DNA from: an uncultured Rhizobium sp.
GTDB taxonomy: Bacteria; Pseudomonadota; Alphaproteobacteria; Rickettsiales; UBA1997
Assembly (NCBI GenBank): GCA_964506725.1
Contig: CAZDLU010000008.1
Coordinates: 73-64,072, forward strand
DNA length: 64,000 nucleotides
Reading direction: 5' to 3'
The notes below the pieces were generated by a model. That model made no database searches and was not told the DNA's origin. It worked only from the letters and a program-made list of their open reading frames with translations. Position numbers and translations under genes: made by a program. Positions 43,393-62,270 of the stretch are shown piece by piece (position 1 is the stretch's first letter; every line of letters begins with the position of its first letter).

Positions 43393-43745
43393 TATGTTTA
43401 CCTTTTTCCTCACGATAAACGTGAAATGAAGAAACGGAGAGAAAATTGCCGAAAATTAAAGAAAATCCGGAAGAATTTGAAGACTAAGATAAACGTGAAA
43501 TGAATATTAAAAAAGCCGCGAAGTCCGCAAACGCAGGGGCTTGGAGAGGAATAAGAAAAATCACTAAAATCCACGAGAGATTTAGTGCGAAATTTTAAAT
43601 GGCGGTGTGGGTGATACCCATTTCGAACTATTCTCACAATTTTTAAAACCTTGATTTACATAGCTCCAGAGGCACTTTTCATATCAACCGGAAAGTTCGA
43701 AAGTGATTCAAGTGAACATGCGGGTGATACCTTTTGCGAACTAAC
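43393..43745 (+). repeat. island boundary repeat, copy A (tRNA-Ser-flank-like unit with pseudo tRNA 3' ends)
   Basis: Contains two ataaacgtgaaatg boxes (43415, 43489), gccgc.aa.tccgcaaacgcaggggcttggagagg, then tggcgg-tgtgggtgatacccatttcgaac (43600-43628) and a second ...gggtgataccttttgcgaac fragment. Alignable to copies B, C and D. Confidence 0.75.
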
Positions 43746-43796
43746 TTTTAGGACGCGTGAAAATTGATCACTGGATGCTCACCAAAAAAAATTAAT

Positions 43797-44405
43797 TTAT
43801 TGTTTTTTCCTTCCCATCCAAACCGTATGTCCCTGACAATTAGGATCTTCTTCTTTATACCTAACTACTTCAAATCCAAATTTTTTAAATAATTCCTGAT
43901 ATTCTTTTTTTGAAAGTGATGCGTGATAAAGATTTTCTCCATTATTATCGCTCCAAATTTCTCCTGCTTCTGGACCGCTAGTAAAAAGGAGGATTCCGCT
44001 CGGTTTGATCTGAGATTCAAAAATTTCAAACATCTTTCTTTGATCATCTTGCGTCAAATGAAAGAAACTGTCCCAGGCAATGATCGCATCAAATTTTTGG
44101 CGCAATTTTATTTTTCTCATATCGGCGAAAATAAAATTTGCATTTGGGAATTTTGCAGGAGGAAATTTCTTTAAAAAAAGATCCATCATTTTTTCGCTAC
44201 CATCAATGCCAGTTAAATCATAACCTTTTTCAATAAAAAATTTAGCAATCGGATCTCCTGCACCGCAGCCTAAATCAAGTATTGAAGAGCTTGTAGGAAT
44301 TGCCTTTACAATTAAATCTAAGTATTCTTTTTCTATCAAATTCTTCGATCGGTTTTGATCAAACCATTCCCCGATTTTATTGTAAGATTCGCAGATTTTT
44401 GTCAT
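43797..44405 (-). CDS. class I SAM-dependent methyltransferase (small-molecule type)
   Basis: 202 aa. Motif I ILDLGCGAGD, post-I LTGIDGSEKM, FDAIIAWDSFFHL. Confidence 0.8.
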   Translation of the reverse strand: MTKICESYNKIGEWFDQNRSKNLIEKEYLDLIVKAIPTSSSILDLGCGAGDPIAKFFIEKGYDLTGIDGSEKMMDLFLKKFPPAKFPNANFIFADMRKIKLRQKFDAIIAWDSFFHLTQDDQRKMFEIFESQIKPSGILLFTSGPEAGEIWSDNNGENLYHASLSKKEYQELFKKFGFEVVRYKEEDPNCQGHTVWMGRKKQ

Positions 44406-44438
44406 AAATTTTTTGTCATAAATAAGTACTGGCTAATT

Positions 44439-45491
44439 TTATTTAACTTTAGAAATCCAGTTTGGATCGCAATTAACGTTATATTTTTCAGGATCAAGAT
44501 TGGCTTTAATCCAAAGACGAAAAGCTATTATAAAGTCCTTATCTAAGCCTCGTAATTCTTTAAAGTTTGGTAAAGTCTTTAAGATAGCGCCAATCGCATT
44601 TTCACGAAGATTCATTGTCACACTATCATCAACAACATTATCCATATGTTTTAGTGCATTGATACAGAACATATCATTAATTTCTTTTCCTATTTCCGGA
44701 ATTGTTTTCTTTGGATCGTTTTCAGACTTGAGAACATAATCGGTAAAGTTTTCTTCCTCCTTATCCTTAATAAGTTGGCATAAAATTACATCAGCTGCCC
44801 CTGCAAGGGTTATTGAAGAAATGAGATCTTGACCTTTGAGAAACAAAATAATTGCTGTTTGAAGCTGGAATTCTGCTAAATCTATAATTTTATATGCTTT
44901 TGTAGAAGTATTTTTATCAATTTGATTTGGTAAAACTTCATGAGGTTTAGCTTTTTGACCATTTTTTTTCTCAAGTTGTTTTATTAACGGTTCATAATCT
45001 TTCATCATTTTTTGACCATCTTTCACTACCCATAAATAATTCAAAAAATTTCTTATGGCAGGCTCATTATCACCATATAGCTTGATGTGGTCGAGAACTG
45101 CAGCAGTAATTGCTTTCTCTGATGCATCTTCCCAATCCATCTCTAATTCATCTGGACAATTTTCCCCCTTATGTCTTAGCGAATAGATTCCAGTAATAGT
45201 TCTGAAGTGATTAATATATTTTGATTTTGAGTGAGCATCGTGCCCAAAAAGTTTTTGAAATAATGTCCGTCCATATTCAAAAAATGACTGCTGACCGCTA
45301 AATTCTAGAATTTTATGAAGAAGTTCTCCTGCTGCTCCAGCTAGAGTAACCGCTGATGGTAAATCTATTCTATTGAGAAATAACCAAATTGCTGTGTGAA
45401 GCTGCTGCTTTGCTATTTCACTTTTACTATAAGTCTTCTCAATATCTGCCCAAGAGTGATTTATTTTTTTCCAATAATCTGTTTCCATCAA
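44439..45491 (-). CDS. hypothetical protein made of two tandem homologous helical domains
   Basis: 350 aa. Half 1 QQLHTAIWLFLNRIDLPSAVTLAGAAGELLHKIL...IYSLRHKG. Half 2 FQLQTAIILFLKGQDLISSITLAGAADVILCQLI...INALKHMD. No family recognised. Confidence 0.6.
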   Translation of the reverse strand: MMETDYWKKINHSWADIEKTYSKSEIAKQQLHTAIWLFLNRIDLPSAVTLAGAAGELLHKILEFSGQQSFFEYGRTLFQKLFGHDAHSKSKYINHFRTITGIYSLRHKGENCPDELEMDWEDASEKAITAAVLDHIKLYGDNEPAIRNFLNYLWVVKDGQKMMKDYEPLIKQLEKKNGQKAKPHEVLPNQIDKNTSTKAYKIIDLAEFQLQTAIILFLKGQDLISSITLAGAADVILCQLIKDKEEENFTDYVLKSENDPKKTIPEIGKEINDMFCINALKHMDNVVDDSVTMNLRENAIGAILKTLPNFKELRGLDKDFIIAFRLWIKANLDPEKYNVNCDPNWISKVK

Positions 45492-45559
45492 TAATTGTTA
45501 ATTAAGTTGCTAGGTGAACTAACCGACAGTTTATCTAATAGAAATCTTCTTTCAATATT

Positions 45560-46100
45560 TGACTAGAAATTCTCTAAATCTCCATTTCACGTTCACCGAA
45601 TTTTGATCACTAATATCAAGGCTTTACACAGTACGATTACAAAAAAATCTCCAATTTTCTCCGCTTTCCTGAGCAAAAAAAACAAATTTTCCAGCAATTG
45701 AAAATTCTCTGAGAAGTTTGCAAAAAGGTTCACCCGCTATGCAGTTATGTTTTCGAACTTTTTTGAGTAGAAGTGACCTAAAGCCAGTATTTACCGATGC
45801 GTACCGTTTTTAAAAAGGTGAACGTGAAGCAAAAAAATAGGGGTAAAAAATGGTAAAATTGAGGGGATTTTGAGAGAAAAATTTAATTTTTCTAACTCAC
45901 GGTGAACATCGATGCAGCTTTGATTTGTAAGGGTTTGTGAGGCTAAAATAGATGAAAAAAAGTAGTGGCGGGGCAGCTGATACAATTTGCGAACCATTCT
46001 CCAATCGTGGAAACCCTTGATTTTATTAGCTTCTCATGCGTACCGAAAAGTTAGAGAAAAATCATCTGGGTGCGGTTGATATAACCTGCGAACTTTTTGC
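45560..46100 (+). repeat. island boundary repeat, copy B (extended ~540-bp unit)
   Basis: Left part atctccatttcacgttcaccgaattttgatcac...; core with ggtgaacgtgaag and tggcgg-ggcagctgatacaatttgcgaacc (45966-45995); right part ...gggtgcggttgatataacctgcgaact. Collinear with copy C. Confidence 0.75.
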
Positions 46101-46187
46101 TGCTTTTGTTAAAAGTGCTCTGAAGCCTTGCTTATACTGGTCATTTCATGTTTACCTTCTGATCGGTTAGAAATTCCAAAACTACGA

Positions 46188-49100
46188 TCAAGAATTTTTA
46201 AACTCTGCCTGATAGTTGCCAGCAATTTTGGATTTTTTATTCAAGATGTAAGAGCCATTGATTTCAAGCCTGCCAAAGTTTCTTGAGTGACCGCCAATCA
46301 TCAATTTTTCACCAATTAACGTCCAAAAAATAGAACAATTATTTTCGTTTAAGAAAGTGCTGAAACTTTTTTTATCGATTAATAATGCTGAAGGATATTT
46401 TTTCTCAAAAATATCTGTAGTGAATGCAATTAAGTTATCTTCTTTATCAAAGAATCTGCCATCAAAATTTTGATGTAGATGCATTCTGTCGATGATCCAC
46501 TTGCAAGGAAGGCTAATTGAGATACCCTTATTCAATGAGTAATCTAAGGAGTTTGAGTAAGAGTCATCAGTTACGATCATTGGAATTTTTGATTCGTTTG
46601 GCTTCACTCCAACATTGTAATCTTCCTTCCTCAAATCTTGAAACGCAGAGTAATCAGGATATTCTCCTAAAAACGTTTCATAAAAAGAGTATGATTCAGG
46701 CATCCATCTTCCATAAAAATTAGTTTTTTTCATCCAGCTAAGCAGATTTTTAGAGTCTTCGTTTTTTACGATATAACTTTTTGTCATGTACCAAAGCTGC
46801 TGAACTGGTACATTATATTTATCGATGATTTCAGGTTGAATCTCGTCTTCCCATTGCATGTAGCTCTCTAGGACTAGCCATTCTTTGCCATTATCATCCG
46901 TAATTGAAATTATATTGGCTGGATTCGGCAAATCTTTTTCATTCCTCATCCATTCGTTATTATTTTTCTTCTTCTGCCAACCTCTGTAACGACCACCTGA
47001 TGATTTCCATTTTGAAAAAGTTACCAATTCTTTGAGGTGATCATCATTTCTTACGATGAATGATGGATCAACGTCTCTTAAATGGGGATGCCAAGGACCC
47101 TTATATTGTTTCTTCGATTTATCCCAATCGTTTCCATTAAATGCGAAATGATCTGATAATAATGCAGTAAATTCGTGATAAGCTATCAGTCGATATTTTT
47201 CCCATATTCTTTCAGAAACATTTTCTGTTTCACTTCCATAATATCTGCCTACCCTTTTATCAAACTCTCCGTGTAAGTCTGGATCATATCCCAATTCTAT
47301 TACTCGGTTAAAAATCCATCTTTTTGCAGTTTCTTTATCAAAAGATTTAAGCGGATCAATTAAATGACCTCGATCATCAAGAAATGGTTCTATCTCATTT
47401 TCAAAGTGATTTTTCTTCGTTGGAGACAGAGATTGTTTAAAGGTTACAAGAAATTTTTTCTGCTTTGTAATTCTTGCTTTCTTTCTTTTATTTTCCGCGA
47501 TTTGAAGGGTTTTTAAATGTTTCTCATCTTTGACGCCTACAAAATTAATTTTAATTTTCGGCATGTCGTCTACCAAAGATAAATTCCAGAACATGGAGTT
47601 TATTGCAGTGCCAAGCAGTTCTTTTTGCTCTTGCGATAAACTCTCTTTAAATTTTTCAAAAAGTTTTTCTCTATCTGGTTCGCCACGATATAATTTTCTG
47701 CTGCTCCAAGCTGATATTTGCATGTGCTTGTCAAAGTCTCCATATCCAGTTATGGAAAACTGCAAATTCGAAAATTTTGAGTTGTCGTCCTTTAAGTTAA
47801 ATTCTTTCTCCAAAAATTGCTGAGTAGGAATTTCGGGCCATTTACTTTTATAGGGAGGGTTAACCTTTTTCTCTAAAATGTTTTTTGGGCAAGTATCGTG
47901 TTTTAGCGCTACCTCGATAATGCCGCGCGCATAATCCCGAAGTAAAATATGTACAGGCGGTCTGTTGCTTTCAAAAATATTTTTATACACCCATTCGGCC
48001 AATTTTTTTAAACCAGCTTTGTTTGATGTATTTCTTAAGGCGCAACCATACGCAACCGCATATAATCTTTCTGCCACATAAGGATCGTTTACTTCTTTAA
48101 ATTCTTCTAAGATTTCAGAAATTAATTCTATTCTGTTATCTAAAATCGAGACCAATCCTTTTGTTGCCTTTCCCCTAACAAGTTTATTTGAGGATGTTAA
48201 GAACCAAGATAATGCTATAGAAACAAGAACTACTGAATCTTCATTTATATTTGATTTATTATGAGGTGACCAAGACCAATCCAACAATCTGCTGACAGCT
48301 TCATGTTCTCCATGTCCATAGTGCAAAAATGATAGCCACCATGAATCTCGCTGAGGCATAGTAAGTTTTGATAAGTACCTATGTAAAAATCTTGCATTAA
48401 ATGGATGATCTTTAATCGGAGAAACCGATAGAAAAGCATTTAATAATTTGTGATGTTCGGACTCTGTTCTGATGTATTTATTTATAATCTTCCTAACTTT
48501 CTCGAAAGAAAAGTCTTTAGGATTTCTCCATATTATGCTTGAGATAAAAGCATCTACAGCAGTACTTCTGAGATAGTCATCTGTCACCAAATACGGAGCG
48601 GCTTCGATGAATTCTATTTGTTGCAATTGCTCTGGGCATTCAATAGATAGAGCCTCGATAATGCCGTGGTTCCATGAGGTAGATATAAATTTTCCAAGAT
48701 CAGTACTCTTTGAAAAAAATGATCTAGCCTGGTTGATAATTTCCGTCCGGTTACGACCTTTATTTGATTTGTCAAATTGAGCCCTATATTGCTTAAAAAT
48801 ATATCTGGCTATGATGTGATCGCTGAATTTCTGAAAAGGAAACCTAACATTAAATTTACCCTTATTCTCGTAGTCTGGAACTCTTGTAATTAGCATGCTC
48901 TTTTCGAGCTGAATAATAAAAGCAGGAATATCATTAATCTCAGGATGGGATTCCTGAATAATTCTTACCAAGTCATCCTCTGGTATTCTGTCTTGATTCT
49001 TCTTAGCCATTTCTTCGGCAATTTTTTCTATCACCGTATCCCAAACAAAATATTGTCCTTTTGTATTTCGTCCTGTTTTTAGCCCTAGCTTCGCAGCAAC

Positions 49101-50381: not shown

Positions 50382-50454
50382 ATTTTAAATTACATTCAGT
50401 CTGCAGAATAATATTTTTGTCTAGATTTGGATGCAGGGCAATAAAAAATTCAGC

Positions 50455-51040
50455 AAAATCTAAATAATCTCCAAATCTCCGTTTCATGTACACCGAATTT
50501 TGATCAGCAAAATCAAGGCCTCACATAATATTATTCGTAAAAAATTCTCTGATTTTCTTTATTTCAAAAACATTTCAGCTACACAGTCAGCCCCTCAAAC
50601 AAAAGTTCGCAGGTTATATCAACTGCCACCACTTTGAGAAGTTCGATGAAAAAGCTACGAGACCAGTATTTATCGATGTGTACCTTTTTCACGCGGTAAA
50701 CGTGAAACGGAGAAATGGAGACAAAAATTGCTGAAAAATTGCAAAATTTTGGAAATTTTTCGGGGAGTTTTTGAGCGGAAGGTAAACGTGAAATGTAAGT
50801 CGTAAAATCTGCGGAGCGTTGCCAATAAAGGCGGGATCAGGCGCGTTGAGAATTTTTAAAAATTTACTCGGAGATTTTGGTTCGCAAAAAAAGTAGTGGC
50901 GGTGGATGGGGGTTAGTTTGCTAAATTGGTCGCACTTTTTTGGAATCAGTAAAATCAAGGTTTCAAAGCCATTTTCATCCATACCGAAAAGTTCGATAAA
51001 AATCAGATGCTTTCACCTCAACCACTTTGCGAAACTTCGT
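50455..51040 (+). repeat. island boundary repeat, copy C (extended ~585-bp unit)
   Basis: Left part atctccgtttcatgtacaccgaattttgatcagc...; core gaagttcgatgaaaaa...ccagtatttatcgatgtgtacc...ggtaaacgtgaaac...ggtaaacgtgaaatg...ggttcgcaaaaaaagtag-tggcgg-tggatggggg (50897-); right part ...accgaaaagttcgataaaaatcag.... Confidence 0.75.
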
Positions 51041-51051
51041 AAGGGTTTTTG

Positions 51052-51067
51052 CCGTGAGTTCGAATCT
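51052..51067 (+). repeat. inverted 16-nt copy of the tRNA-Ser T-arm
   Basis: ccgtgagttcgaatct on the plus strand is identical to the T-stem/loop segment of the minus-strand tRNA-Ser at about 62196-62211. The downstream acceptor part is degenerate. Confidence 0.6.
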
Positions 51068-51187
51068 TCCTGCGCTACACAAATTGGACATAATTGGACA
51101 TTTTTGTGGATATTTGCTGATTTGTTAAACCGATTGCCTTATAGTAGCAATATTGCATAAATCGCAATGTTTCTACTATGACATGCA

Positions 51188-51226
51188 TTGACTTTTGCAT
51201 TTTTAATGATATTATAGTCGTATAAT
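51188..51226 (+). promoter_or_regulatory. putative sigma-70 promoter of the abiE operon
   Basis: TTGACT (51188-51193), a 16-17 nt spacer, TATTAT/ATTATA (51210-51216), and a second perfect TATAAT at 51221-51226. It lies 25-60 nt upstream of the abiEi ATG and is flanked by atagtag...ctactat repeats. Confidence 0.4.
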
Positions 51227-51250
51227 TACTATTTTAGCAATTTTTCTACT

Positions 51251-52057
51251 ATGGCAAAGTTTTCAGAATATTTAAAAGACTTAAGAAAATCAGGGCGGCT
51301 TTCTTTCACAGTGGATGAGGCTGCGAGCGATTTAAAGATCTCGAAATATAATGCTTTATCTTCGATATGCCGCATAAAAAAACGCGGAGAAATTATCAGT
51401 CCTGCAAAAGGATTTTATGTGATAATCCCACCTGAACATCAATTGCAGGGTTGTTTGCCTGCAGCAGAATTAGTGCCAATTTTAATGCAGCATTTGGGAG
51501 TAAATTATTATGCAGGCTTGCTTAGCGCTGCAATGTATCACGGAGCAACTCATCAAAAGCCAAATTCATTTCAAGTAATTTCTGATAAGCAAATCCGCAA
51601 AAGTTTAAAATTTGGGCAAATAAGCATTGATGTAATTTACAAAAAATCTCTAGCCAATCTTCCTCTAAAAGAAATTGCTGTTGATAGCGGATATTTAAAA
51701 ATTTCCTCACCGGAACTAACCGCTATGGATTTACTACTTTACCCTGAAAGAAGTGGCGGGCTAAATCATATCGCAACTGTTCTATCAGAGTTGGTGCAAT
51801 CAATTGATCTTAAAAAATTGATCGAGCTGGCAAAAATTTCCAACCAAAAATTCTGGCTGCAAAAATTGGGCTATATCTTGGAAAAAATTGATGTCGAAAA
51901 TCTTGATCAGAAGCAGGAAATCATTAACGGTCTGCAAGATTATCTATCTTCGGATAAAAAACTCGTTGCCCTCGCTCCAGAAATTCCAATTAAAGGTTAT
52001 CCAAGATGTAAGAAATGGATGATTATCGAAAACACTTCAATTGAGAGCGACTTATGA
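51251..52057 (+). CDS. abiEi: type IV toxin-antitoxin system antitoxin, AbiEi family
   Basis: 268 aa. N-terminal wHTH (FTVDEAASDLKISKYNALSSICRIKKRGEIISPAKGFY) and C-terminal AbiEi_4-like region (YYAGLLSAAMYHGATHQ). Confidence 0.85.
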   Translation: MAKFSEYLKDLRKSGRLSFTVDEAASDLKISKYNALSSICRIKKRGEIISPAKGFYVIIPPEHQLQGCLPAAELVPILMQHLGVNYYAGLLSAAMYHGATHQKPNSFQVISDKQIRKSLKFGQISIDVIYKKSLANLPLKEIAVDSGYLKISSPELTAMDLLLYPERSGGLNHIATVLSELVQSIDLKKLIELAKISNQKFWLQKLGYILEKIDVENLDQKQEIINGLQDYLSSDKKLVALAPEIPIKGYPRCKKWMIIENTSIESDL

Positions 52058-52869
52058 TTCCAAAGATTTTTATAGAAAAATGGCAACAAAATGCTCCTTG
52101 GCAAAGCCTTGATATGGTTGAGCAAGACTTAATTATTAACAGGGCTTTGGTAAGTCTTTACCAAAATCAGAAAATTAAAGAAAGCCTGATTTTTCGTGGC
52201 GGAACTGCGCTCAATAAAATTTACCTCAAACCCTCAGCGCGTTATAGTGAAGATTTAGATTTTGTCCAAACCAAAGCACAGCCAATTGGTGAAACAATAG
52301 ACGCTATCAGAATCGCACTTAATTGGCTTGGAGAACCAAACCGCCTTTTGACTGAGCGATCAGCAAAGTTAGTTTACAAATATACTTCTGTTAACGGCCT
52401 ACCGATGAAGCTAAAAATTGAAATTAATACCACTGAGCATTTTCAGGTAATGGATATTAACAATGTAGCTTTTGGTTTTGAGTCGAAGTGGTTTAGCGGC
52501 GAAAGCATAGTTGCGGTTAATCAGCTAGAAGAGCTGATGGCAACTAAGATAAGAGCCTTATACCAAAGACGCAAAGGCAGGGATTTATTCGATCTGTGGA
52601 TGGTCTTCAGTAAAGATTTAGCAAACATTGACGAAACGCTGAAAATTTTCAAAAAATATTGCGAGTATGGTGGGTTAAAAATTTCCAAAGATTTGTTTTT
52701 AAAAAACCTCGAATTGAAGCGCTTAAATAAAGACTTCCAGCTTGATATGAATATTTTGCTGCCCCAAGGGTTTCCGCAAACTTTTCCTATTACTTTTCGT
52801 GAGTCAACCAACTGGAATTTTGATGAGGCTTTTGAGTATGTAACAAGTGAAATTATTAACCGAATTTAA
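52054..52869 (+). CDS. abiEii: nucleotidyltransferase toxin, AbiEii/AbiGii family
   Basis: 271 aa. LIFRGGTALNKIYL...RYSEDLDF motif, KIRALYQRRKGRDLFDL. Its start overlaps the abiEi stop by 4 nt. Confidence 0.87.
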   Translation: MIPKIFIEKWQQNAPWQSLDMVEQDLIINRALVSLYQNQKIKESLIFRGGTALNKIYLKPSARYSEDLDFVQTKAQPIGETIDAIRIALNWLGEPNRLLTERSAKLVYKYTSVNGLPMKLKIEINTTEHFQVMDINNVAFGFESKWFSGESIVAVNQLEELMATKIRALYQRRKGRDLFDLWMVFSKDLANIDETLKIFKKYCEYGGLKISKDLFLKNLELKRLNKDFQLDMNILLPQGFPQTFPITFRESTNWNFDEAFEYVTSEIINRI

Positions 52870-52875
52870 TCGTGT

Positions 52876-53736
52876 ATGAAAAAATCGCTAAAATATCTTC
52901 CGGAATCTAAACAAAACGAATTGCAAAAAATCATTTCTGCAATTCAAAAAACTTGTAAAGATGTTGAGAAGATTATTCTGTTTGGTTCTTACGCGCGCGG
53001 GGATTACAAGGAAGCCAAAGACTTAAAAGATGATAGAAGAACTGGTCACATTTCTGACTATGATATTCTGGTGGTGACAGAAAAAAAGAAATCCACAGAC
53101 AAGTTTTCTTCTTGGAATAAAACAGAAAAACTAAAACTAACCGCACCAGTTAGAGCAATCGCTCATGATATTGAAAGCCTGAATATTAACCTTGCCGAAG
53201 GGCAATATTTCTTTACCGACATTAAGAAAGAAGGTATCTCGCTCTTCGATTCTAAAAAATATAAGCTGGCCAATAAAAGAAAATTAAAACCAAAAGAAAA
53301 ACAAAGGATTGCGCAAGATCACTTTGAGGAATGGTTTAGAAGTGCTGTTAATTTTTTTGATGCGTTTGAATTAATGATGTCAAAGGAGCAATATAAAAAT
53401 GCAGCATTTCAATTGCATCAGGTTGCAGAATCATGCTACAAAACAATTCTTTTGGTTTTCACCAATTACAATCCCAACGAGCATTTTCTATGGATGCTGG
53501 GACAAAGATCTGCCAAATATCACCCTGATCTAAAAACTCTTTTTCCTAAAAAAAATCAGAAAGATAAGGATCGATTTAAGCTACTAGATGATGCTTATAT
53601 TGGTGGCAGGTATGATCCGGACTTTCGAATTTCAAAACGTGATTTGGAAATTTTGGCAAAAGATGTGAAGAAATTATTGGAGCTTACTGAAGAAATCTGT
53701 GAGCAAAAAATACAAAGTTTAATCGAGAAAAAATAA
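52876..53736 (+). CDS. fused nucleotidyltransferase (MNT) - HEPN domain protein
   Basis: 286 aa. N-terminal MNT motif (LFGSYARGDYKE...SDYDILVV). C-terminal HEPN-like helical domain (AQDHFEEWFRSAV...AFQLHQVAESCYK...AYIGGRYDPDF). Confidence 0.75.
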   Translation: MKKSLKYLPESKQNELQKIISAIQKTCKDVEKIILFGSYARGDYKEAKDLKDDRRTGHISDYDILVVTEKKKSTDKFSSWNKTEKLKLTAPVRAIAHDIESLNINLAEGQYFFTDIKKEGISLFDSKKYKLANKRKLKPKEKQRIAQDHFEEWFRSAVNFFDAFELMMSKEQYKNAAFQLHQVAESCYKTILLVFTNYNPNEHFLWMLGQRSAKYHPDLKTLFPKKNQKDKDRFKLLDDAYIGGRYDPDFRISKRDLEILAKDVKKLLELTEEICEQKIQSLIEKK

Positions 53737-55163
53737 TGCCAATTTTACACTGGTTAGATAGGGACAAGACTATAAAGCAAACAAGCCGAGCCCCCTATCG
53801 TTTGCTTGAAGTTGATCCTCAACTTTCCTATGGGGATCAAAATTCGCAAAATCTCTTAATTCAAGGTGATAATTTAGAAGCTCTAAAAGCTCTTCTTCCT
53901 TACTACGCTGGCAAAGTAAAATGCATTTTTATCGATCCACCATACAACACAAAAAGCGCATTCGAGCATTACGATGATAATTTAGAGCATACAAAGTGGC
54001 TGGAGATGATGTATCCAAGATTGGAATTGTTGCGTGAGTTGTTGAGTGAGGATGGAAGTATCTGGGCAACTATTGATGATAACGAGGTTCACTATCTAAA
54101 AGTAGTGATGGATGAAGTTTTTGGGCGTAAAAATTTTATTTCAAATGTGGTCTGGCAGCACAGCATACAAGGACAAGGGTATCAAGGAAAATTCACACTG
54201 AACCATAATCATATTCTGTGCTATAAAAAATCTGATAACTTTTTATTAGGAGTGCTTCCGAGAGAAGAGCATCACAACAAAGCTTATTCCAATCCAGACA
54301 AAGATCCTAAAGGATTATGGAGAACTGGAGATGTTAGAAATGGATTATACCGACCAAACCTAAAATATAACATCACAACACCGAGTGGAAAGGTAATAGA
54401 GCCACCAGCTAATGGTTGGAGATGGTCACAAGACACTCTTGCTGAAAAAATCAAATCTGGAGAGATTGTTTTTTCTCCAGATGAAACAAGGATAATCAGA
54501 AAAATATATCTCTGCAATCAGGAAGGACGAGTTCCGGATTCTTGGTGGAATGGTGACGAAATGGGAACAACTCGTCAGGCAAAATCAGAGCTAAAAAGTA
54601 TTTTTGAAGAAGATCTGTTTGATACCCCAAAGCCGGAAAAACTGATTCAGAAAATTTTACAGCTTTCAACAAAGGAAAATGATTTAGTTCTCGACTCATT
54701 TCTTGGCTCCGGCACTACTGCTGCAGTTGCTCACAAAATGAATCGTCAATGGATTGGAATTGAAATGGGTGAGCATGCAAAGACTCACTGCGCTGCTCGT
54801 TTACAAAAAGTGATTAACGGTGAACAAGGTGGAATTTCAAAAGATGTTAATTGGCAAGGTGGTGGTGGATTCCATTTTTACAGTCTTGGTGAAGCGATTT
54901 TTGATGAAGATGGTCAGATTAATAAAAGCATCAGGTTCGAGCACCTAGCAGCACATATTTGGTTTTCAGAAACCAAAACTACTTTTAACAAAAAAGAAAA
55001 ATCCACACTTTTGGGCGCTCATAATGGCGTTGCTTATTATCTGTTATTCAACGGTATTTTGGGTGATAAAAGCATTTCTGGTGGAAATGTTTTAACCTCA
55101 AAAACTTTGGCAAAAATTCTTTCAGCTCTACCAAATGGCTTTGGAGCCAATAACTTCCGCTGA
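53736..55163 (+). CDS. mod: beta-class N6-adenine/N4-cytosine DNA methyltransferase (type III Mod-like), apparently 3'-truncated and without a Res partner
   Basis: 475 aa. Motif [11 protein letters not shown] precedes motif [14 protein letters not shown] (beta order). [18 protein letters not shown] box. The conserved tail breaks off after ...[14 protein letters not shown], and the last ~9 codons overlap copA. Confidence 0.7.
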
Positions 55164-57144
55164 AAATAATGGCTTTGATGAAGAATTTTCTTGTTTGAAG
55201 AAACGATTTTTAATCGCGCTGATTCTGACTTTGCCGATTTTATTTTTGGAAATGGGCGGGCATTTTTTTCAGTTTATTGATGTCAGAGTTTCGCAGGTGA
55301 TTCAGATGATTTTATCATTCGCTGTCGTGTTTTGGAGTGGTTGGATATTTTTTGTCAAAGCTTTCGAATCGGTAAGAAATCGTATGCCGAACATGTTTAC
55401 ACTTATTGCTCTTGGAACCGGTGTAGCATGGATTTACAGCTTCGTTGCAATTTTATTTCCGCAAATTTTCCCTACTGAATTTTTAGATGATCAAGGTCAC
55501 ATCGCTGTTTATTTTGAATCGGCTGCTGTCATTACTTTACTAATTTTGCTTGGCCAAATTCTTGAAGTTAAAGCGCGCAAAAATACCTCCAGTGCCATCT
55601 CTGCTTTATTAAAACTTACTCCAACAAAAGCCTATCGTTTTACTAAAAATGGCGAAGAAGAAATTAGCATCGAGCAAATTCAAGTTGGAGATTTATTGCG
55701 CGTTCGTCCTGGCGATAAAATTCCAACTGATGGTGAAATTACTGAAGGCACAAGCAACATTGACGAATCCATGATTACCGGTGAATCAATGCCGGTTAAA
55801 AAGCAAATTGGTGATAAGGTGATTGGAGCTACAATCAATCAAGATGGCAGCTTTGTGATGAAAGTTTTGCAAGTTGGTGAAAGCACTGTTCTCCAACAAA
55901 TAATCAAAATGGTAACAGAGGCCAAGCAAGGACAAACCAAAATTCAGAAATTGGTTGATCAGGTTGCGGCATGGTTTGTGCCACTCGTTATTGTAATTGC
56001 TATCGCAACATTTTTTAGTTGGATGATTTTTGCTGATAATTCGGCGCATGGTTTGATTGCAGCAGTGTCGGTTCTGATTATTGCCTGTCCTTGCGCTCTT
56101 GGCCTTGCAACTCCAATGTCAATAATTGTCGCGCTTGGAAAAGGAGCGGCAAATGGCGTGTTGGTTAAAAATGCTGAGAGCTTAGAAAAAATGGCGAAAG
56201 TAAAAGTGATCGTTGTTGATAAAACCGGAACGCTAACGGAAGGAAAACCACAACTAACAAAAATTATTACAGTAAAAGATTTTACCGAAGAAAAAATTAT
56301 TCAACTTGCTGCAAGCCTTGAAAATCAGAGTGAACATCCACTTGCTAAAGCAATCACTAACTATGCCAAAGAAAAGAAAGTCTCTTTTTTGAAAGTAGGA
56401 AATTTTACAACTCCAATTGGAAAAGGAGTTAGCGGTGAAGTTGAAAATCAAAAAGTTTTAATCGGCAATGCCAATTTCATGGCAGAAAATTCCGTTGATT
56501 ATGAAGAATTAAAGGCAGCGGCGGAAGAATTGAAAACAGGCGGCGCAACGGTGATTTTCATCGCAATTAATCAAAAGCTCGCCGGTTTGTTTGCCATTGA
56601 AGATGCGCTAAAATCAACAAGTCTCGCAGCTGTAAAAGAGCTACAAAATCTTGGTCTCCGAATTGTCATGCTTACCGGAGATAGTAAAAAAACTGCTGAC
56701 AAAGTTGCTAAAGAATTAGGAATCACAGAAGTATTTGCTGAAATTCTTCCGCAAGAAAAAAGTAAAATTATTGCCCAATTAAAAGCTGAAGGAAATGCTG
56801 TAGCAATGGTCGGAGATGGCATTAATGATGCTCCAGCCTTAGCAATTGCCGATGTTGGAATTGCAGTGGCAAATGGAACTGATGTCGCAATTGAAAGTGC
56901 CGGAATTGTTCTGCTACATGGTGATTTGGCAAAGCTGGTTAAAGCTTTTCATCTTTCGCAAAAAACTATCCGCAATATTAAGGAAAATTTGTTTTTTGCT
57001 TTTGGTTACAATGTGTTCGCGATTCCTTTGGCTGCTGGTTTATTTGGTTTTCAATTGAGTCCGATTATTGCTGCGGCAGCGATGGCTTTAAGCGATGTAT
57101 CAGTGGTGGCAAATGCTCTTCGTCTAAAAACAATTAAAATTTAA
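55135..57144 (+). CDS. copA: copper-translocating P1B-type ATPase lacking the N-terminal HMA domain
   Basis: 669 aa. CPC motif ([13 protein letters not shown]), [19 protein letters not shown]. The sequence starts in the linker just before TM1 ([19 protein letters not shown]). No GMTCxxC domain. Confidence 0.88.
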
Positions 57145-57145
57145 A

Positions 57146-58762
57146 ATGCGAAAATACTTCCTGATTTTTTTACTTCTTTTGGGGTCTGCTCCAGCCTTGG
57201 CTAAAACCTATGATCTTGAAATCAAAAAGCAGAATGTTTTTATCACCGGAAAAGCAATTGAAGCAATAACCATCAATGGTGGAGTTCCTGGTCCGACCTT
57301 GCGCTTAAAAGAAGGAGAAGATGTTACGATCAATGTCAAAAACTCGATGGATGAAACTACCTCAATTCATTGGCACGGAATTTTACTTGATGGAAAATTT
57401 GATGGTGTGCCTGGTTTAAATGGTTTTCACGGTATTGCGCCACATACAACTTTCACCTATAAATTCAAAGTCAGGCAAAAAGGAACTTACTGGTATCACT
57501 CCCATTCAAACTTGCAGGAGCAGCAAGGTGTTTATGGCTCAATTGTAATTGAGCCAAGCGAAGCCAAAGCTGACCGTGAGCATGTTATTGTTCTCTCTGA
57601 TTTTACTGAGGAAAATCCCAACACAGTTTTAAACAATCTCAAAATTGATTCCGGCTATTATAATTTTAACAAGCGCACAATTTTTACTTTTTTCTCTGAC
57701 ATAAAAAAGAACGGATTTTCTGCAACGCTGCGCAATTACATGGATTGGGGTTCAATGCGCATGGATCCTACAGACTTATCAGATGTCACCAGATATTATT
57801 TCTTAACAAACGGCAAAACCGCAGAGCAAAATTGGACGGGAATTTTTAAGAAAGGTGAACGCGTAAAACTTCGCTTCATCAATGCTTCAGCGATGACAAT
57901 TTACGACATTTCAATCCCTGGTCTAAAAATGAAGTTGGTTGAAGCGGATGGTCAACCGGTAAAACCAACCTCAATTGACGAATTCCGTTTTGGCGTTGCC
58001 GAAACTTACGATGTGATTGTTGAGCCAAAAGAAGATAAGGCTTACACAATTTTTGCCGAATCAATTGACCGCACCGGATACGCCAGAGGAACTCTTGCAC
58101 CAAAAGAAGGAATGGAAGGCAAAATTCCACCAATGCGTCCAAGGGCGGTTTTAACTATGGCAGATATGGCAATGGGAGGTATGGATCATAGCAGCATGCA
58201 AGGAATGAGTGATATGAAAAATATGGATCACTCAAAAATGGGTCATGACATGAGTGGCATGGATATGGGCGGAATGAATATGGCCGAGGGGATGAATAAT
58301 GTAAAAAGTGGCTGGGCGCAGCGTGGTACTCCAAAAGGTAATAAAGCTTTAGAATATTCCGATCTAATTTCTCTTTACCCTCAAAAAGATTTACGTCAAC
58401 CAACTCGTGAGATTGAATTCAAATTTGGCGGCACGATGAATCGCTATATCTGGACGATCAACGGCGAAAAATTTCCAAAACCAATGCGCTTAAAATATGG
58501 AGAACGAGTGCGTCTACAGTTTGTTAATGAAACCATGATGGCACATCCAATTCATTTACATGGTATGTTCATGCAGCTTGAAAATGGTCAGCCAATGAAA
58601 TGGATGCCAAATAAACACACAGTTCTTTTGCCTCCCGCACAAACTGTTACATTGCTTTTAACCGCCGATGAAGCGGGCGAATGGGCACTCCATTGTCACC
58701 TTCTTCTGCATATGGCAAGCGGCATGATGACTTCTGTTACCGTTGATAAGGAGGGCAAATAA
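57146..58762 (+). CDS. pcoA: periplasmic multicopper oxidase, CopA/PcoA family
   Basis: 538 aa. Signal peptide. Cu-binding HWHG, WYHSH, HPIHLHG, HCHLLLHMASGM. Met/His-rich loop (MADMAMGGMDHSSMQGMSDMKNMDHSKMGHDMSGMDMGGMNM). Confidence 0.9.
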   Translation: MRKYFLIFLLLLGSAPALAKTYDLEIKKQNVFITGKAIEAITINGGVPGPTLRLKEGEDVTINVKNSMDETTSIHWHGILLDGKFDGVPGLNGFHGIAPHTTFTYKFKVRQKGTYWYHSHSNLQEQQGVYGSIVIEPSEAKADREHVIVLSDFTEENPNTVLNNLKIDSGYYNFNKRTIFTFFSDIKKNGFSATLRNYMDWGSMRMDPTDLSDVTRYYFLTNGKTAEQNWTGIFKKGERVKLRFINASAMTIYDISIPGLKMKLVEADGQPVKPTSIDEFRFGVAETYDVIVEPKEDKAYTIFAESIDRTGYARGTLAPKEGMEGKIPPMRPRAVLTMADMAMGGMDHSSMQGMSDMKNMDHSKMGHDMSGMDMGGMNMAEGMNNVKSGWAQRGTPKGNKALEYSDLISLYPQKDLRQPTREIEFKFGGTMNRYIWTINGEKFPKPMRLKYGERVRLQFVNETMMAHPIHLHGMFMQLENGQPMKWMPNKHTVLLPPAQTVTLLLTADEAGEWALHCHLLLHMASGMMTSVTVDKEGK

Positions 58763-59502
58763 TGAGAGTAAAATTTTTCTTAAAATCAGGTCTGATATTT
58801 TTCTTTTTTGGCGGAATTGCTTTTGCCCAAAATGTAGAACCAAAAATGGATCATGGTGATGATCATGCGCAAATTTATCACGCTTTTACTGTCGAAGCAG
58901 ATGTTGGTGAAGCTCAAGATGGCCGCTCAAAAGGCTTCGATCTTTCCGGTTGGGTTGGTGGCGATTACAACCGACTATGGATTAATAGTGAGAAAAAAAA
59001 TTACGGAAATTATGAGGAAATATTTGAAGCCCAAGCGCTTTATAGTCGTAACGTTGCTCAATTTTGGGATGCGCAAATCGGTGTCGCTCATGATTTTAGC
59101 ACCGATTTTACTCCAACAAATGTAAATTATTTTGTAATTGGTGTTGAAGGTCTGGCGCCACAAATGTTTGAAACCAAGGCGCAATTTTTTCTAAGTGATG
59201 AGGGAAACTACAGTGCCAGATTCAAGCAGGAAGTTGATATTTTTCTGACACAACGATTGATTACCCAACCTTATTTTGAGACCGAAATTTTTGCTCAGGA
59301 TGTTGAAAAGTTAGAAGTGAAATCAGGAATTTCTGATTTTGAAGTTGGTATTGCAACACGCTACGAAATCAGCCGCAAGTTCGCTCCATACTTCGCTCTA
59401 CGTTATCACACTAAAACTTTTGGCACGGCAGATTTAGCAAGGCAGCTTGGAGAAAGAGTCGATAATTTTATCGTTGCCGCAGGGATAAGATTGAGATTTT
59501 AG
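58762..59502 (+). CDS. pcoB: copper resistance protein B (outer-membrane), CopB/PcoB family
   Basis: 246 aa. Signal peptide and beta-barrel-like C-terminal part ending ...AAGIRLRF. Its start overlaps the stop of the MCO gene. Confidence 0.8.
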   Translation: MRVKFFLKSGLIFFFFGGIAFAQNVEPKMDHGDDHAQIYHAFTVEADVGEAQDGRSKGFDLSGWVGGDYNRLWINSEKKNYGNYEEIFEAQALYSRNVAQFWDAQIGVAHDFSTDFTPTNVNYFVIGVEGLAPQMFETKAQFFLSDEGNYSARFKQEVDIFLTQRLITQPYFETEIFAQDVEKLEVKSGISDFEVGIATRYEISRKFAPYFALRYHTKTFGTADLARQLGERVDNFIVAAGIRLRF

Positions 59503-59588
59503 TGAAATTTTTAGCGACTTTTTGCTAAAAATCCGTCTAAAATATTTCCGCTAAGGAAATAATTTTTATTAACAAAACTTTTAAAATT

Positions 59589-59906
59589 ATGAAAAAAATA
59601 TATCTGCTTATTGCCACCATTTTTTTATCTTCTTCAGTTGCGGCTAATGCGGAGCAATCTCATTCTACCCATCAGGATGAAATGAAGAATATTGATCACA
59701 GCAATGCCGCTCATAAGTCTGAAATGGAAGCTGTAGATCATGAAAAAGCTGCTCATAAATCTCAAATGAAAGCGGTAGATCACACAGACAAAATTCATAA
59801 AAATAAAATGAAAGCTGTAGATCGCGCTAACAAACATCATAAATCTAAAATGAGTGAATCGCAGGAAAAAGAATCCGATGATCACGGCAGTCATCATGTT
59901 AACTAG
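59589..59906 (+). CDS. secreted His/Lys/Met-rich tandem-repeat protein, putative periplasmic metal-binding protein
   Basis: 105 aa. Signal peptide, then about 4.5 copies of a 14-aa unit (HKS.MKAVDH....) and a DDHGSHHVN tail. It sits between the copper and arsenic genes. Confidence 0.6.
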   Translation: MKKIYLLIATIFLSSSVAANAEQSHSTHQDEMKNIDHSNAAHKSEMEAVDHEKAAHKSQMKAVDHTDKIHKNKMKAVDRANKHHKSKMSESQEKESDDHGSHHVN

Positions 59907-59999
59907 AAAAAATCATGTGATCATGGCGACAGAATAAAATTATTCTTCTGTCGTCACATTTGAATGAATTATCAATTATAGCAATATCAATTTTTCTCA

Positions 60000-61007
60000 T
60001 CATTTGCTGAATTTCTTTGCGGTTTTATTGGCAATATTAACCAGCAAAAGCATTGCCGGAACTTCGACCAAAACACCAACTACTGTTGCAAAGGCCGCGC
60101 CGGAATTTAAACCAAACAGGCTGATTGCCACCGCAACTGCTAATTCAAAGAAATTGGAAGAACTGATCATGGATGCGGGAGCCGCGATGTTGTGTGGAAT
60201 TTTGGCTTTATACATCCAGAAGTAAGTCAAACCAAACATCAGAAAACTTTGTAGAATTATTGGCACTGCCACCATCAGAATTGGTGCGGGATTTTTTAAC
60301 AAAATATTAGCCTGAAATCCAAACAGCAAAACTACCGTTATTAATAATCCACTTACTGAATAAGGCTTGAGATGATTCAAAAAAAAATCGAGTTTTTTTG
60401 CCGAAAGTTTCTGGCGCGTAAAATATCCACCAAACATCGGAATTAAAACATAAAGCAAAACTGATAAAATTAGCGTGTTCCACGGCACTTCAATTTTTGC
60501 CACACCAAGCAGAAAAGCTACAATTGGCGCATAAGCAAAAATCATGATCAGGTCATTTAGTGAAACCTGAACCAAAGTGTAGTTGGCATTTCCTTTTACC
60601 AATTTGCTCCAGACGAAAACCATTGCCGTGCAAGGCGCACCACCAAGCAAAATCAGACCAGCCAGATATTCTTTAGAATCAAGTTCGGGAATAAAATCTT
60701 TGAAGACATGTTGTAAAAAAAGCGCTCCAAGAGCAGCCATACTGAAAGGCATAATCAACCAGGTGACAACAAAACTAATTCCAAATGCTTTTGGTTTCTT
60801 TGTTACTTCTTTGATCGTTGAGAAATCAATTCCCACCATCATCGGATAAATCATCACCCAAATCAAAATGGCGATGACGAAATTAACATTGGCATATTGA
60901 AGTTGACTTAAAATTTCAAAGATTTGCGGAAACAATTTTCCAAGCACGACTCCAGCAACAATTGATAAGGCAACCCAGAGGCTTAAATATCTTTCAAAAA
61001 TTCCCAT
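60000..61007 (-). CDS. acr3: arsenite efflux transporter, ACR3 family
   Basis: 335 aa. MGIFERYLSLWVALSIVAGVVLG start, IWVMIYPMMVGIDF, GGAPCTAMVFVWS. Confidence 0.9.
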   Translation of the reverse strand: MGIFERYLSLWVALSIVAGVVLGKLFPQIFEILSQLQYANVNFVIAILIWVMIYPMMVGIDFSTIKEVTKKPKAFGISFVVTWLIMPFSMAALGALFLQHVFKDFIPELDSKEYLAGLILLGGAPCTAMVFVWSKLVKGNANYTLVQVSLNDLIMIFAYAPIVAFLLGVAKIEVPWNTLILSVLLYVLIPMFGGYFTRQKLSAKKLDFFLNHLKPYSVSGLLITVVLLFGFQANILLKNPAPILMVAVPIILQSFLMFGLTYFWMYKAKIPHNIAAPASMISSSNFFELAVAVAISLFGLNSGAAFATVVGVLVEVPAMLLLVNIANKTAKKFSK

Positions 61008-61010
61008 AAA

Positions 61011-61487
61011 TTATTTTAGTTTTGCGATTTTATTAAATTTAGAAATTAACTCTTCTTTGGAGAGGCTCAAATCTACACCTGACAAAGCCTTAATTCGCTT
61101 TTCTATAATTGAAAAAATCCTCTCAAATTCAGCTTCGACTTCCTCACTGCTACCGGTAAATTTTGCTGGGTCTTCTAATCCTAAATGCACTTTGATAAAG
61201 TTGCCTAGAAATAACGGACAAGATTCATTGGCAGCATTATCACAAACTGTGATCACAATATCGAAGCGCTCATTTTTGAATTCACCCCAGCTTTTGCTTC
61301 TTAGGTTTGTAGTAGAAATGCCGTGTTTTTGCAGAGTTTTAATTGCCAGCGGATGAACATATCCAGCAGGAAAACTTCCGGCACTAAATGCCTCAAATTT
61401 ATCGCCAGCATAGTGATTAATCGCAGCTTCAAACATTATACTGCGGCATGAATTGCCAGTGCAGAGAACGAGGATTTTGGTTTTCAT
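61011..61487 (-). CDS. arsC: arsenate reductase, thioredoxin-coupled LMW-PTP type
   Basis: 158 aa. CTGNSCRS P-loop and the downstream Cys pair (VCDNAANESCP). Confidence 0.85.
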   Translation of the reverse strand: MKTKILVLCTGNSCRSIMFEAAINHYAGDKFEAFSAGSFPAGYVHPLAIKTLQKHGISTTNLRSKSWGEFKNERFDIVITVCDNAANESCPLFLGNFIKVHLGLEDPAKFTGSSEEVEAEFERIFSIIEKRIKALSGVDLSLSKEELISKFNKIAKLK

Positions 61488-61822
61488 TTTTTCTTACAGT
61501 CATTAAATAAATTTGAATCAATACAGGATTTTTCTCCTGAATCAGCGCAACAATTTTCAAACAGAAATTTTATCAGATTTTCCATAGCTTTAAAGTTGGC
61601 CGTGTAAGTAATACATCTGCCGCTTTTACTTTTCTTGATCAGCTTATTTTTCTCCAGATGCGCCAGATGAAAAGACATAGTATTTTGTGGCACATCCATC
61701 TTCTTACTGATTTCGCCTGCAAGTAAACCATCAAAGCCCGCCTTAACCAACAGCTTAAAAGCCCTCAAACGAGTTTCTTGAGATAAAGAACTAAGTGCTG
61801 ATGCCGCTTCTTTTAAATTCAT
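61484..61822 (-). CDS. arsR: ArsR/SmtB-family metalloregulator
   Basis: 112 aa. wHTH (AGEISKKMDVPQNTMSFHLAHLEKNKLIK) and C-terminal Cys cluster (ENCCADSGEKSC). Confidence 0.85.
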   Translation of the reverse strand: MNLKEAASALSSLSQETRLRAFKLLVKAGFDGLLAGEISKKMDVPQNTMSFHLAHLEKNKLIKKSKSGRCITYTANFKAMENLIKFLFENCCADSGEKSCIDSNLFNDCKKK

Positions 61823-61934
61823 AACTGCAATATAATTAATCTAAATATCCAGAATTATGGATATTCCTAAACAAAAGTCAATATGCGACAAGTTTGCAAA
61901 AAAGTCGGAAACATCACTTGAGGTAGCATAGCAT

Positions 61935-62180
61935 GAAGTTCGATGAAAAACCCACGAAGCCAGCATTTATCAATGCTTACCGTTTTCAAAAAGGTAAACG
62001 TGAAGCGGAGAAACAGAGAGAAAAATACCCCAAAAATGCAGAAAATTTTGCTGACAAGAGAGAGGAAGGTAAGCGTGAAATGGAAATTCAAATGTGGAGA
62101 GAAGCCGCAAACACAGGGGCTGGAGACGGGTAGAGAATTTTGCTAAAACCTATGGGAGATTCGGTTCGCAAAGGTATGTA
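61935..62180 (+). repeat. island boundary repeat, copy D (reference copy abutting the tRNA-Ser 3' end)
   Basis: gaagttcgatgaaaaa...ccagcatttatcaatgcttaccg...ggtaaacgtgaag (61993)...ggtaagcgtgaaatg (62068)...gccgcaaacacaggggctggagacgg...ggttcgcaaaggtatgta, followed directly by tggcgg of the tRNA. Confidence 0.75.
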
Positions 62181-62270
62181 TGGCGGACAGGGTGAGATTC
62201 GAACTCACGGAACGCTTGCACGTTCGGCAGTTTTCAAGACTGCTGCCTTAAACCGCTCGGCCACCTGTCC
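62181..62270 (-). tRNA. tRNA-Ser (anticodon UGA)
   Basis: Minus-strand read: GGACAGGTGGCCGAGCGGTTTAAGGCAGCAGTCTTGAAAACTGCCGAACGTGCAAGCGTTCCGTGAGTTCGAATCTCACCCTGTCCGCCA. 7-bp acceptor stem, anticodon stem GCAGT/ACTGC with loop CTTGAAA, long variable arm, T-arm GTGAG-TTCGAAT-CTCAC, encoded CCA. Confidence 0.93.

Follow-up and report, generated by a model that had tools for sequence, protein, structure and literature searches.

The 64,000-nucleotide (64-kb) stretch analysed here, called the window below, is part of contig CAZDLU010000008.1 of GenBank assembly GCA_964506725.1 (positions 73 to 64,072 of the forward strand), deposited as an uncultured Rhizobium sp. and placed by its GTDB lineage in the Rickettsiales (UBA1997). 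Near its right end a genomic island of about 19 kb lies against the 3' end of a tRNA-Ser(UGA) gene, the sole tRNA gene of the window; TGGCGG at 62181-62186 of the + strand is the complement of this gene's 3' end CCGCCA. The genes gcvH and gcvT lie to the right of the tRNA, and the island's left flank is a cytochrome bo operon with cyoE, followed by an orphan open reading frame (ORF) of 157 amino acids (aa). Within the island three cargo segments (i to iii) of defence and metal-resistance genes are divided by direct copies, A to D, of a module that we call the unit; A to C are each followed by a tail, and D is followed by the tRNA (Table 1).

Four copies of one module at a tRNA-Ser gene

A sequence-only reading, made earlier from the letters of this DNA without database searches, had pointed to diverged direct repeats next to tRNA-Ser, and alignment bears this out. 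An nhmmer profile built from 15 units of the tRNA-adjacent type and run on the 64-kb window finds exactly four copies, all on the + strand, and no copy in the window's 43 kb of core genes. Sensitive blastn aligns A with D (65% identity over 320 nt, E 6e-29), C with D (71% over 269 nt, E 1e-32), A with C (63% over 355 nt, E 6e-20) and B with D (76% over 94 nt, E 3e-14). The unit starts with AAGTTYGCAAAAAAGT (the start of unit D reads AAGTTTGCAAAAAAGT), contains two GGTAARCGTGAA repeats ~75 bp apart, and ends in GGTTCGCAA-N9-TGGCGG; the closing TGGCGG stands at 43600-43605 (A), 45966-45971 (B), 50897-50902 (C) and 62181-62186 (D). Two shorter motifs are also concentrated here. GGTAAACGTGAA at no more than one mismatch occurs nine times in the window (0.25 expected), always within 43.4-62.2 kb, and RGTTYGMDAD is ~30-fold enriched at the junctions, with 11 of its 20 window matches in 2.5 kb of junction DNA.

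Gene callers annotate a 66-aa ORF inside the unit (61933-62133, +, in unit D), which is found in 23 protein clusters, mostly of 66 aa; is it a gene? Comparison of 15 copies gave 32, 26 and 28 variable states at the first, second and third codon positions, with no third-position excess, and 718, 569 and 730 pairwise differences, with no codon periodicity. The ATG is missing in about half of the copies, in-frame stops or a frameshift interrupt 9 of the 15, and sequence conservation runs on beyond the stop codon. The ORF is not a gene, and what is annotated across many metagenome-assembled genomes (MAGs) as a conserved "hypothetical protein" is really a DNA site. A structured RNA was rejected as well: in RNAalifold each strand has a single compensatory pair, and the covariation terms are -1.06 and +0.02 kcal/mol, the minimum free energy of the unit is weaker than that of shuffles on both strands (z +0.92 and +1.06), and Rfam, at gathering and at E-value thresholds, matches nothing but the tRNA. 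A promoter and terminator scan of the island gave counts indistinguishable from those of shuffled sequence. The unit is a conserved non-coding DNA module of ~300 bp.

The sequence-only reading had also described the tails after TGGCGG as tRNA-3'-like. Scored against shuffles, the first 36 nt of a tail resemble a tRNA acceptor plus T-arm in tail A (p ~0.002) and in the tail of the related locus L004 (p ~0.01); for B (p 0.36) and C (p 0.32) the resemblance is not significant. A reading of whole tails as the decayed 3' two-thirds of tRNA-Ser found no support for the tails as a family, with z values of -1.5 to 2.5 and 8 of 10 tails clearly non-significant; the borderline scores are those of L004 (z 2.48, 13 of 500 shuffles as good) and L007 (z 1.77, 31 of 500). 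The tails share a hairpin-like stretch that reads TTTGCGAA at the position where the tRNA has ATTCGAA, and together with the GGTTCGCAA of the unit it makes up a ~45-bp dyad centred on TGGCGG. Cargo segments are in addition bracketed by inverted T motifs: the 31 nt at 50601-50631 are 90% complementary to 46067-46097, and this pair encloses the Avs2 gene in the window and another gene in L016. Within one cargo segment, the T motifs of both ends have cassette-specific variants in common.

Breakpoints in related loci

With the unit's pseudo-ORF as a handle and one exact-pattern scan, ~40 related loci (L numbers) were retrieved from freshwater metagenomes and MAGs. They are labelled Rickettsiales or Alphaproteobacteria or, evidently in error, Rhizobium and Rickettsia typhi. 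The unit is 85-93% identical across them. In the window the tRNA 3' end abuts the island and the core genes stand on the 5' side, and the same polarity recurs in 13 further loci. On the 5' side the loci carry housekeeping genes (gcvH/T, IspG, RimM, NusB, RelA/SpoT, LysA), and on the unit side accessory genes for defence, resistance and transport that vary between genomes, which speaks for the serial integration proposed by the sequence-only reading. The unit-side cargo of the relatives includes copper, arsenic and chromate resistance, resistance-nodulation-division (RND) pumps, and ClC and NhaA transporters, as well as SIR2, Mrr, type I restriction-modification, AbiE, Fic, HamA and beta-lactamase-fold proteins. 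Relatives differ in the genes present at this site, with the breakpoint at TGGCGG. For an empty-site comparison, the relatives of gcvH (82-83% identity) have no tRNA-Ser beside that gene.

Where, exactly, do the junctions lie? We compared 29 unit ends of the conserved type, all reading GGTTCGCAA-N9-TGGCGG. The sequence that comes next is tRNA-Ser(UGA) in 13, tRNA-Ser(GGA) in one, a tail of the tail C family in six and a tail of three other families in six; outside the tail C family, the tails include some like tail B and some of other types. Whenever two junction types are compared, homology changes over at TGGCGG and nowhere else, the unit is joined there to at least seven distinct right-hand partners, and the N9 subtype of the unit is uncorrelated with the partner.

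The cargo is modular. The stretch of tail C and AbiEi, counted from 13 nt ahead of TGGCGG, is 96% identical in the window and in L016, and the units to the left are unrelated; tail C relatives occur in L007, L009, L014, L016, L018 and L020, and in L009 and L014 the family precedes a Fic and MNT-HEPN pair. Tail B and L016 agree at 92%, the match opening precisely at TGGCGG, and in L016 an LD-carboxypeptidase-like gene takes the place of Avs2. The ars operon and unit recur as a block that is followed by a tail in L009 and by the tRNA in L028, and the copper module and unit recur in L005, L010, L012 and L019. The sequence-only reading had divided the cargo of the window into three segments, and two refinements apply to these: the NTPase of segment ii is Avs2, and segment iii is a composite of modules that occur singly in other loci, with junctions of their own. 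Identity across loci is 82-87% for ars plus unit, 84-96% for AbiE and 85-93% for the units, compared with 74-76% for the gcvT/H core; unit plus tRNA is 90-91% conserved and the adjacent core flank 75-85%.

Two pairs of loci carry near-identical blocks. L010 and L012, from two different MAGs, share 10,257 nt with 0 mismatches (RND pump, ATPase, multicopper oxidase, CopB and unit); the first mismatch comes 3 nt beyond TGGCGG, after which the tRNA-Ser(UGA) alleles differ at 12 positions and the flanks are unrelated. L005 and L019 have 3 mismatches in 2,297 nt of cargo and unit up to TGGCGGAAGAG, after which L005 continues into tRNA-Ser(UGA) and L019 into tRNA-Ser(GGA), two tRNAs that at this point have nothing but the acceptor end in common. 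In both pairs, then, the match breaks off 3-11 nt beyond TGGCGG, and different tRNA-Ser genes with unrelated flanks follow, which indicates recent site-specific insertion at the tRNA-Ser 3' end. Such blocks beside different tRNA-Ser genes, and the many partners joined to the unit at TGGCGG, support the serial integration at the tRNA-Ser 3' end that the sequence-only reading had put forward, with a recombinase that is lost or acts in trans.

In L028 an 18-nt stretch of the tRNA 3' end is present twice, in direct orientation, on either side of a small insert that separates the unit from the tRNA. This 165-bp insert (L028 457-640) holds an inverted 15-nt copy of the tRNA end and then a terminator-like hairpin, and may have been left behind by a further small insertion or inversion.

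How the cassettes may move

The sequence-only reading had recognised no integrase, excisionase or transposase in the 19-kb island, and a Pfam scan of 40 ORFs across the whole window agrees: no integrase, resolvase, transposase or excisionase family is among them. Nor is there a site-specific recombinase within ±10 kb in the ~40 loci (50 locus ORFs and precomputed annotations). The scan covered ~90 ORFs with Pfam, the orphans also with NCBIfam and PADLOC, and none of them is an integrase, a resolvase or a DDE integrase. The unit, its tails or a cognate element gave no match in plasmid, phage and viral-contig collections. With no linked recombinase, the enzyme would have to act in trans or sit farther off in full-length elements. 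The only transposase in any locus is of the IS256 family (Transposase_mut; L009 1259-2518, -), 7.5 kb from the unit, and it appears unrelated to the junction architecture. A reading of the repeated motifs as those of a Tn7-like or CRISPR-associated transposon was dropped, there being no transposition genes and the breakpoints lying at TGGCGG.

We put a probability of about 0.6 on the following explanation: the locus is an additive genomic island, into which cassettes without a recombinase of their own were inserted one after another, site-specifically, at the very end of tRNA-Ser on its 3' side. Abutment on the tRNA 3' end, TGGCGG-bearing repeats and variable content, as expected of such islands, are all present; an island-encoded integrase is not. 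Where the junction lies, that the parts are modular, that transfer was recent and that no recombinase is linked to them is shown by the comparisons above. We infer that each cassette is circular, with a composite attachment (att) region made of the ~300-bp unit ending in GGTTCGCAA-N9-TGGCGG and of a tail that would begin with a T-arm-like hairpin with the loop TTTGCGAA. A recombinase encoded elsewhere (candidate sources are the chromosome, some helper element, or full-length relatives that carry the gene at their far end) would carry out strand exchange in the terminal ~6-11 nt of the tRNA gene (..CCGCCA). The new unit would land against the intact tRNA and the new tail against the unit of the previous occupant, which would be pushed distally and then decay; decay of such older junctions would account for the conservation of D and the divergence of A, B and C (63-76% pairwise). 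Putative protein-binding sites are GGTAAACGTGAA, which the unit holds twice in direct orientation and the ends of cassettes hold inverted, and RGTTCGMAAA, of which each junction has several, pointing either way. Our guess for the enzyme is a tyrosine integrase with arm-type sites; a large serine recombinase that acts on the ~45-bp dyad GGTTCGCAA-N27-TTCGAAC is equally possible. The cassette family is apparently still active. The sequence-only reading had remarked on a repeat much longer than a usual att core; the long repeat is real, and it is borne by the cassette, with no duplicated chromosomal att core and a shared crossover of ~6-11 nt.

Several points weigh against this explanation. The recombinase, its central actor, is hypothetical, and a single one acting in trans leaves the conservation of all 300 bp of the unit unexplained and does not obviously explain the cassette-specific variants of the T motifs. 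Resemblance to tRNA is non-significant not only in tails B and C (above) but in most other tails. The left ends of both near-identical blocks run beyond the fetched loci, so that an element-borne integrase more than 10 kb away is possible for the L010/L012 and L005/L019 elements. The comparison sequences are metagenome assemblies throughout, in which joins across a conserved 300-bp repeat and a tRNA could occasionally be chimeric; for L010 and L012 this worry is lessened because both tRNA contexts recur independently in other MAGs (L006/L008 and L011). The search for excision joints and empty sites drew only on assembled contigs of low depth from the source metagenome, and these held no informative one.

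What else could produce this arrangement? An integron-like platform, in which the tRNA-proximal unit is a fixed attI-like site, the cargo between inverted T motifs (resembling attC halves) is mobile and the recombinase is unlinked, has several features on its side: inverted repeats with cassette-specific sequence bracket cargo (46067-46097 with 50601-50631, 43716-43741 with 45717-45739, and a GACCCC pair in L009), one such pair of ends bears different cargo in L016, AAGTTCGAT(A/G)AAAA stands on both sides of bracketed segments, and the cassettes lack a recombinase. The sharp high-identity breakpoints, however, fall at TGGCGG, whereas the inverted T motifs show none, units recur within arrays and at places away from any tRNA, so there is no single fixed platform, and no intI-like gene stands beside the tRNA; we regard such a platform as unlikely. 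Somewhat less probable again is RecA-dependent homologous recombination of incoming DNA across the ~300-bp unit, with the direct repeats as a by-product. It would fit the absence of a recombinase, a repeat that far exceeds a normal att core, and units whose 85-93% identity between genomes is sufficient for such exchange, but both recent pairs break 3-11 nt from TGGCGG rather than at points spread over unit and tRNA, a single type of unit meets many unrelated partners precisely at TGGCGG, and use of two tRNA-Ser genes that share only the acceptor end calls for site recognition.

Duplication of a functional paralogous gene, either for the 66-aa protein or for a small RNA that is transcribed together with the tRNA or lies antisense to it, is hard to credit: annotation of the ORF in 23 clusters and strong conservation of the whole unit would suit it, but the missing codon periodicity, the stops or frameshift in 9 of 15 copies, the lack of covariation, the weak folding energy and the lack of an Rfam match all tell against it. 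Equally poor are the prospects of a dispersed repeat (a miniature inverted-repeat transposable element or one like the repetitive extragenic palindromic sequences) unlinked to tRNA-Ser or gene flux, an alternative that the sequence-only reading had itself raised and that is now largely refuted. About half of the conserved-type copies do lie away from a tRNA; 14 of the 29 unit ends, though, abut the tRNA-Ser 3' end in one register, the others abut recurring tail families in the same register, and all copies sit at boundaries of variable accessory cargo, with none in the 43 kb of core genes.

How does the arrangement of recombinase-free cassettes at tRNA-Ser compare with known systems? In an integron, intI adjoins attI and the promoter Pc, and the cassettes end in attC sites, imperfect palindromes of 57-141 bp that fold single-stranded. 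As in integrons, recombinase-free cassettes are ordered at one site with imperfect inverted repeats at their boundaries and the newest next to the anchor; unlike integrons, there is no intI and no attC-like hairpin of 60-140 bp, the cassettes have several genes with their own regulators in both orientations, and the anchor is a tRNA. The junctions measure 450-700 bp, the unit shows no excess folding, and the inverted T motifs are kilobases apart, all of which differs from attC. Integrative mobile elements exploiting Xer (IMEX) and pdif modules encode no recombinase and use the host enzyme. By eye GGTTCGCAAAG resembles the XerC arm (GGTGCGCATAA) at 8 of 11 positions, but no sequence like an XerD arm and no 28-bp dif architecture follows it, and the target is a tRNA end rather than dif.

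The cis-mobilizable elements (CIMEs) of streptococci are reportedly flanked by att sites, devoid of recombination genes, accreted in tandem and moved by the integrase of a related element. Cargo segments i, ii and iii likewise have units and tails at both ends and no recombination or conjugation genes; they differ in that no partner element, integrative and conjugative or integrative and mobilizable, is visible, the att region is larger and more elaborate, and the target is the tRNA-Ser 3' end. The tandem islands of Dehalococcoides at ssrA are said to arise by repeated insertion at the 3' end of the small RNA gene, with direct repeats and their own integrases, and the int elements of Dichelobacter nodosus, also reportedly with their own integrases, to insert at more than one tRNA-Ser gene. 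Tandem islands at the 3' end of a small RNA gene with direct repeats, and in D. nodosus the use of different tRNA-Ser genes, are what our locus has in common with these; the cassettes here, unlike those elements, encode no integrase.

A close parallel is found in Prochlorococcus, where elements of tycheposon islands insert next to the tRNA and older material moves distally, tRNA-Ser(tga) is among the seven target tRNAs, partial tRNA copies stand between tandem elements, an active element or integrase is lacking from most islands, and the cargo serves adaptation or defence (Hackl et al., bioRxiv 10.1101/2020.12.28.424599). Tycheposons have their own integrase and hallmark genes, and their repeat is a partial tRNA of ~40 nt (10.1101/2020.12.28.424599). 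The island described here resembles theirs in tRNA-proximal additive insertion, in the tRNA-Ser(UGA) anchor and in adaptive and defence cargo. It differs in cassettes with no recombinase within reach, in sharing only ~6-11 nt with the tRNA, in a ~300-bp non-tRNA module plus tail, and in its hosts, which are Rickettsiales-like freshwater bacteria. Tycheposon hallmarks (a tyrosine or large serine recombinase, replication or packaging genes) are absent from the window and from the ~40 loci within ±10 kb.

The literature searched held no description of this cassette family. In most described tRNA islands each element brings its own integrase, and here cassettes were apparently moved with no visible recombinase; those with anti-phage, copper, arsenic, chromate and efflux genes appear to have moved between bacterial species very recently, in every instance with one and the same elaborate module and a few shared bases of tRNA-Ser. 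We also entertain, as a tentative extension with the odds well against it, an undescribed gene-capture system, akin to the cassette-array alternative of the sequence-only reading, in which cassettes with the ~300-bp module would be served by a dedicated unlinked recombinase that is conserved across the clade and targets the CCA end of tRNA-Ser, both UGA and GGA. Such a system would be integron-like in logic, with other sites, another anchor and probably another enzyme, and would now be moving defence and metal-resistance genes between species. Should the enzyme be found, this would be a new trans-acting capture system and would explain the exchange of accessory genes in reduced, uncultured, Rickettsiales-like freshwater bacteria.

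Cargo, flanks and neighbouring genes

Table 1. Features of the tRNA-Ser(UGA) island, in window coordinates
Feature	Position	Strand	Evidence or remark
Orphan 157-aa ORF between cyoE and unit A	42805-43278	-	No Pfam or NCBIfam match
Unit A, most tRNA-distal diverged copy	43356-43605	+	nhmmer match 43377-43615, E 3e-26; 65% to unit D
Tail A: T1 (tRNA acceptor/T-arm-like stretch), AAGTTCGAAAG motif, T2 (GCGGGTGATACCTTTTGCGAAC)	43606-43745	+	tRNA-likeness p ~0.002
Cargo i: S-adenosylmethionine (SAM) methyltransferase (43797-44405, mad2-like) and 350-aa protein with internal duplication	43797-45491	-	
"Left" region B, ending in inverted T motif 45717-45739, which matches T2 of tail A (43716-43741)	45563-45739	+	
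Unit B, partly decayed; recognisable at 45707-45840 and terminal TGGCGG only	45707-45971	+	nhmmer match 45707-45840, E 6e-12
Tail B, left end of Avs2 cassette	45972-46156	+	92-95% identical to L016 8882-9072, there with other cargo
Cargo ii: Avs2 (AVAST type 2) anti-phage STAND NTPase, 1397 aa	46188-50381	-	NCBIfam NF041813, PADLOC
"Left" region C, ending in inverted T motif 50601-50631	50460-50631	+	
Unit C, diverged copy	50613-50902	+	nhmmer match 50613-50911, E 3e-36; 71% identity to unit D
Tail C, left end of cargo segment iii	50903-51122	+	76-96% identical upstream of AbiEi or Fic genes
Cargo iii, defence: AbiEi, AbiEii, fused MNT-HEPN protein, type III mod without res	51251-55163	+	
Cargo iii, copper: P-type ATPase, multicopper oxidase, CopB, His-rich 105-aa protein	55135-59906	+	
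Cargo iii, arsenic: ACR3, ArsC, ArsR	60000-61822	-	Contiguous with unit D; block and unit recur in L009 and L028
Unit D, tRNA-proximal conserved non-coding module	61878-62186	+	nhmmer match 61878-62198, E 1e-107; 85-93% identical to copies in ~35 loci
tRNA-Ser(UGA), intact, CCA encoded; the junction falls at its 3' terminus (+ strand TGGCGG)	62181-62270	-	ARAGORN; Rfam tRNA 58.3 bits

The Avs2 assignment rests on 1126 bits with NF041813 (cut-off 1000) and 1181 bits with the PADLOC Avs2 model. The 350-aa protein of segment i (44439-45491, -) matches no family and contains the internal repeats ...QLHTAIWLFLNRIDLPSAVTLAGAAGELL... and ...QLQTAIILFLKGQDLISSITLAGAADVIL...; it may be the partner of the mad2-like methyltransferase in a methylation-associated defence system. 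The type III mod gene (53736-55163, +; PADLOC MTase_III, 583 bits) has no res beside it and overlaps with its 3' end the start of the P-type ATPase gene at 55135. Probably the gene is an orphan, or else what is left of a truncated restriction-modification system. The histidine-rich protein of 105 aa (59589-59906, +) looks secreted, is encoded with three 42-nt tandem repeats (HK..M.AVDH) and has no family assignment. It is conserved downstream of CopB in L005 and L019, and for this reason is likely, on sequence grounds, to be a periplasmic copper-binding accessory protein. The 157-aa ORF at the distal edge of the island, with no homologue among 5.8 billion proteins, is either the last remnant of a cargo or no real gene.

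A 33-nt palindrome, 94% complementary, lies between gcvH and gcvT (62912-62981). An exact-pattern search of the related loci for it gave no match; stretches ~80% similar to it occur in other contexts at L011 12618-12702 and L012 19416-19495, which points to a palindromic repeat present in dispersed copies. The closest gcvH relatives (82-83%; L029 at 16.0-20.4 kb, and L030-L032) encode VirB3/TrbL type IV secretion and ankyrin-repeat proteins, and such genes suit a clade that lives in association with hosts in the manner of Rickettsiales. A phytochelatin-synthase-like gene in the window (36386-37288, +) has a homologue at L005 11645-12514, on the housekeeping side of tRNA-Ser. A nucleotidyltransferase of the Polbeta type paired with an NTase_sub_bind (HEPN-like) protein (~11727-12429, -) lies inside a sugar-nucleotide/glycosyltransferase cluster, its annotation being taken from the identical contig L017. 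Finally, the window encodes a MutS-like protein of 979 aa (23950-26889, +) of unusual architecture, with MutS domains I and V and a weak C-terminal match to a GIY-YIG nuclease.

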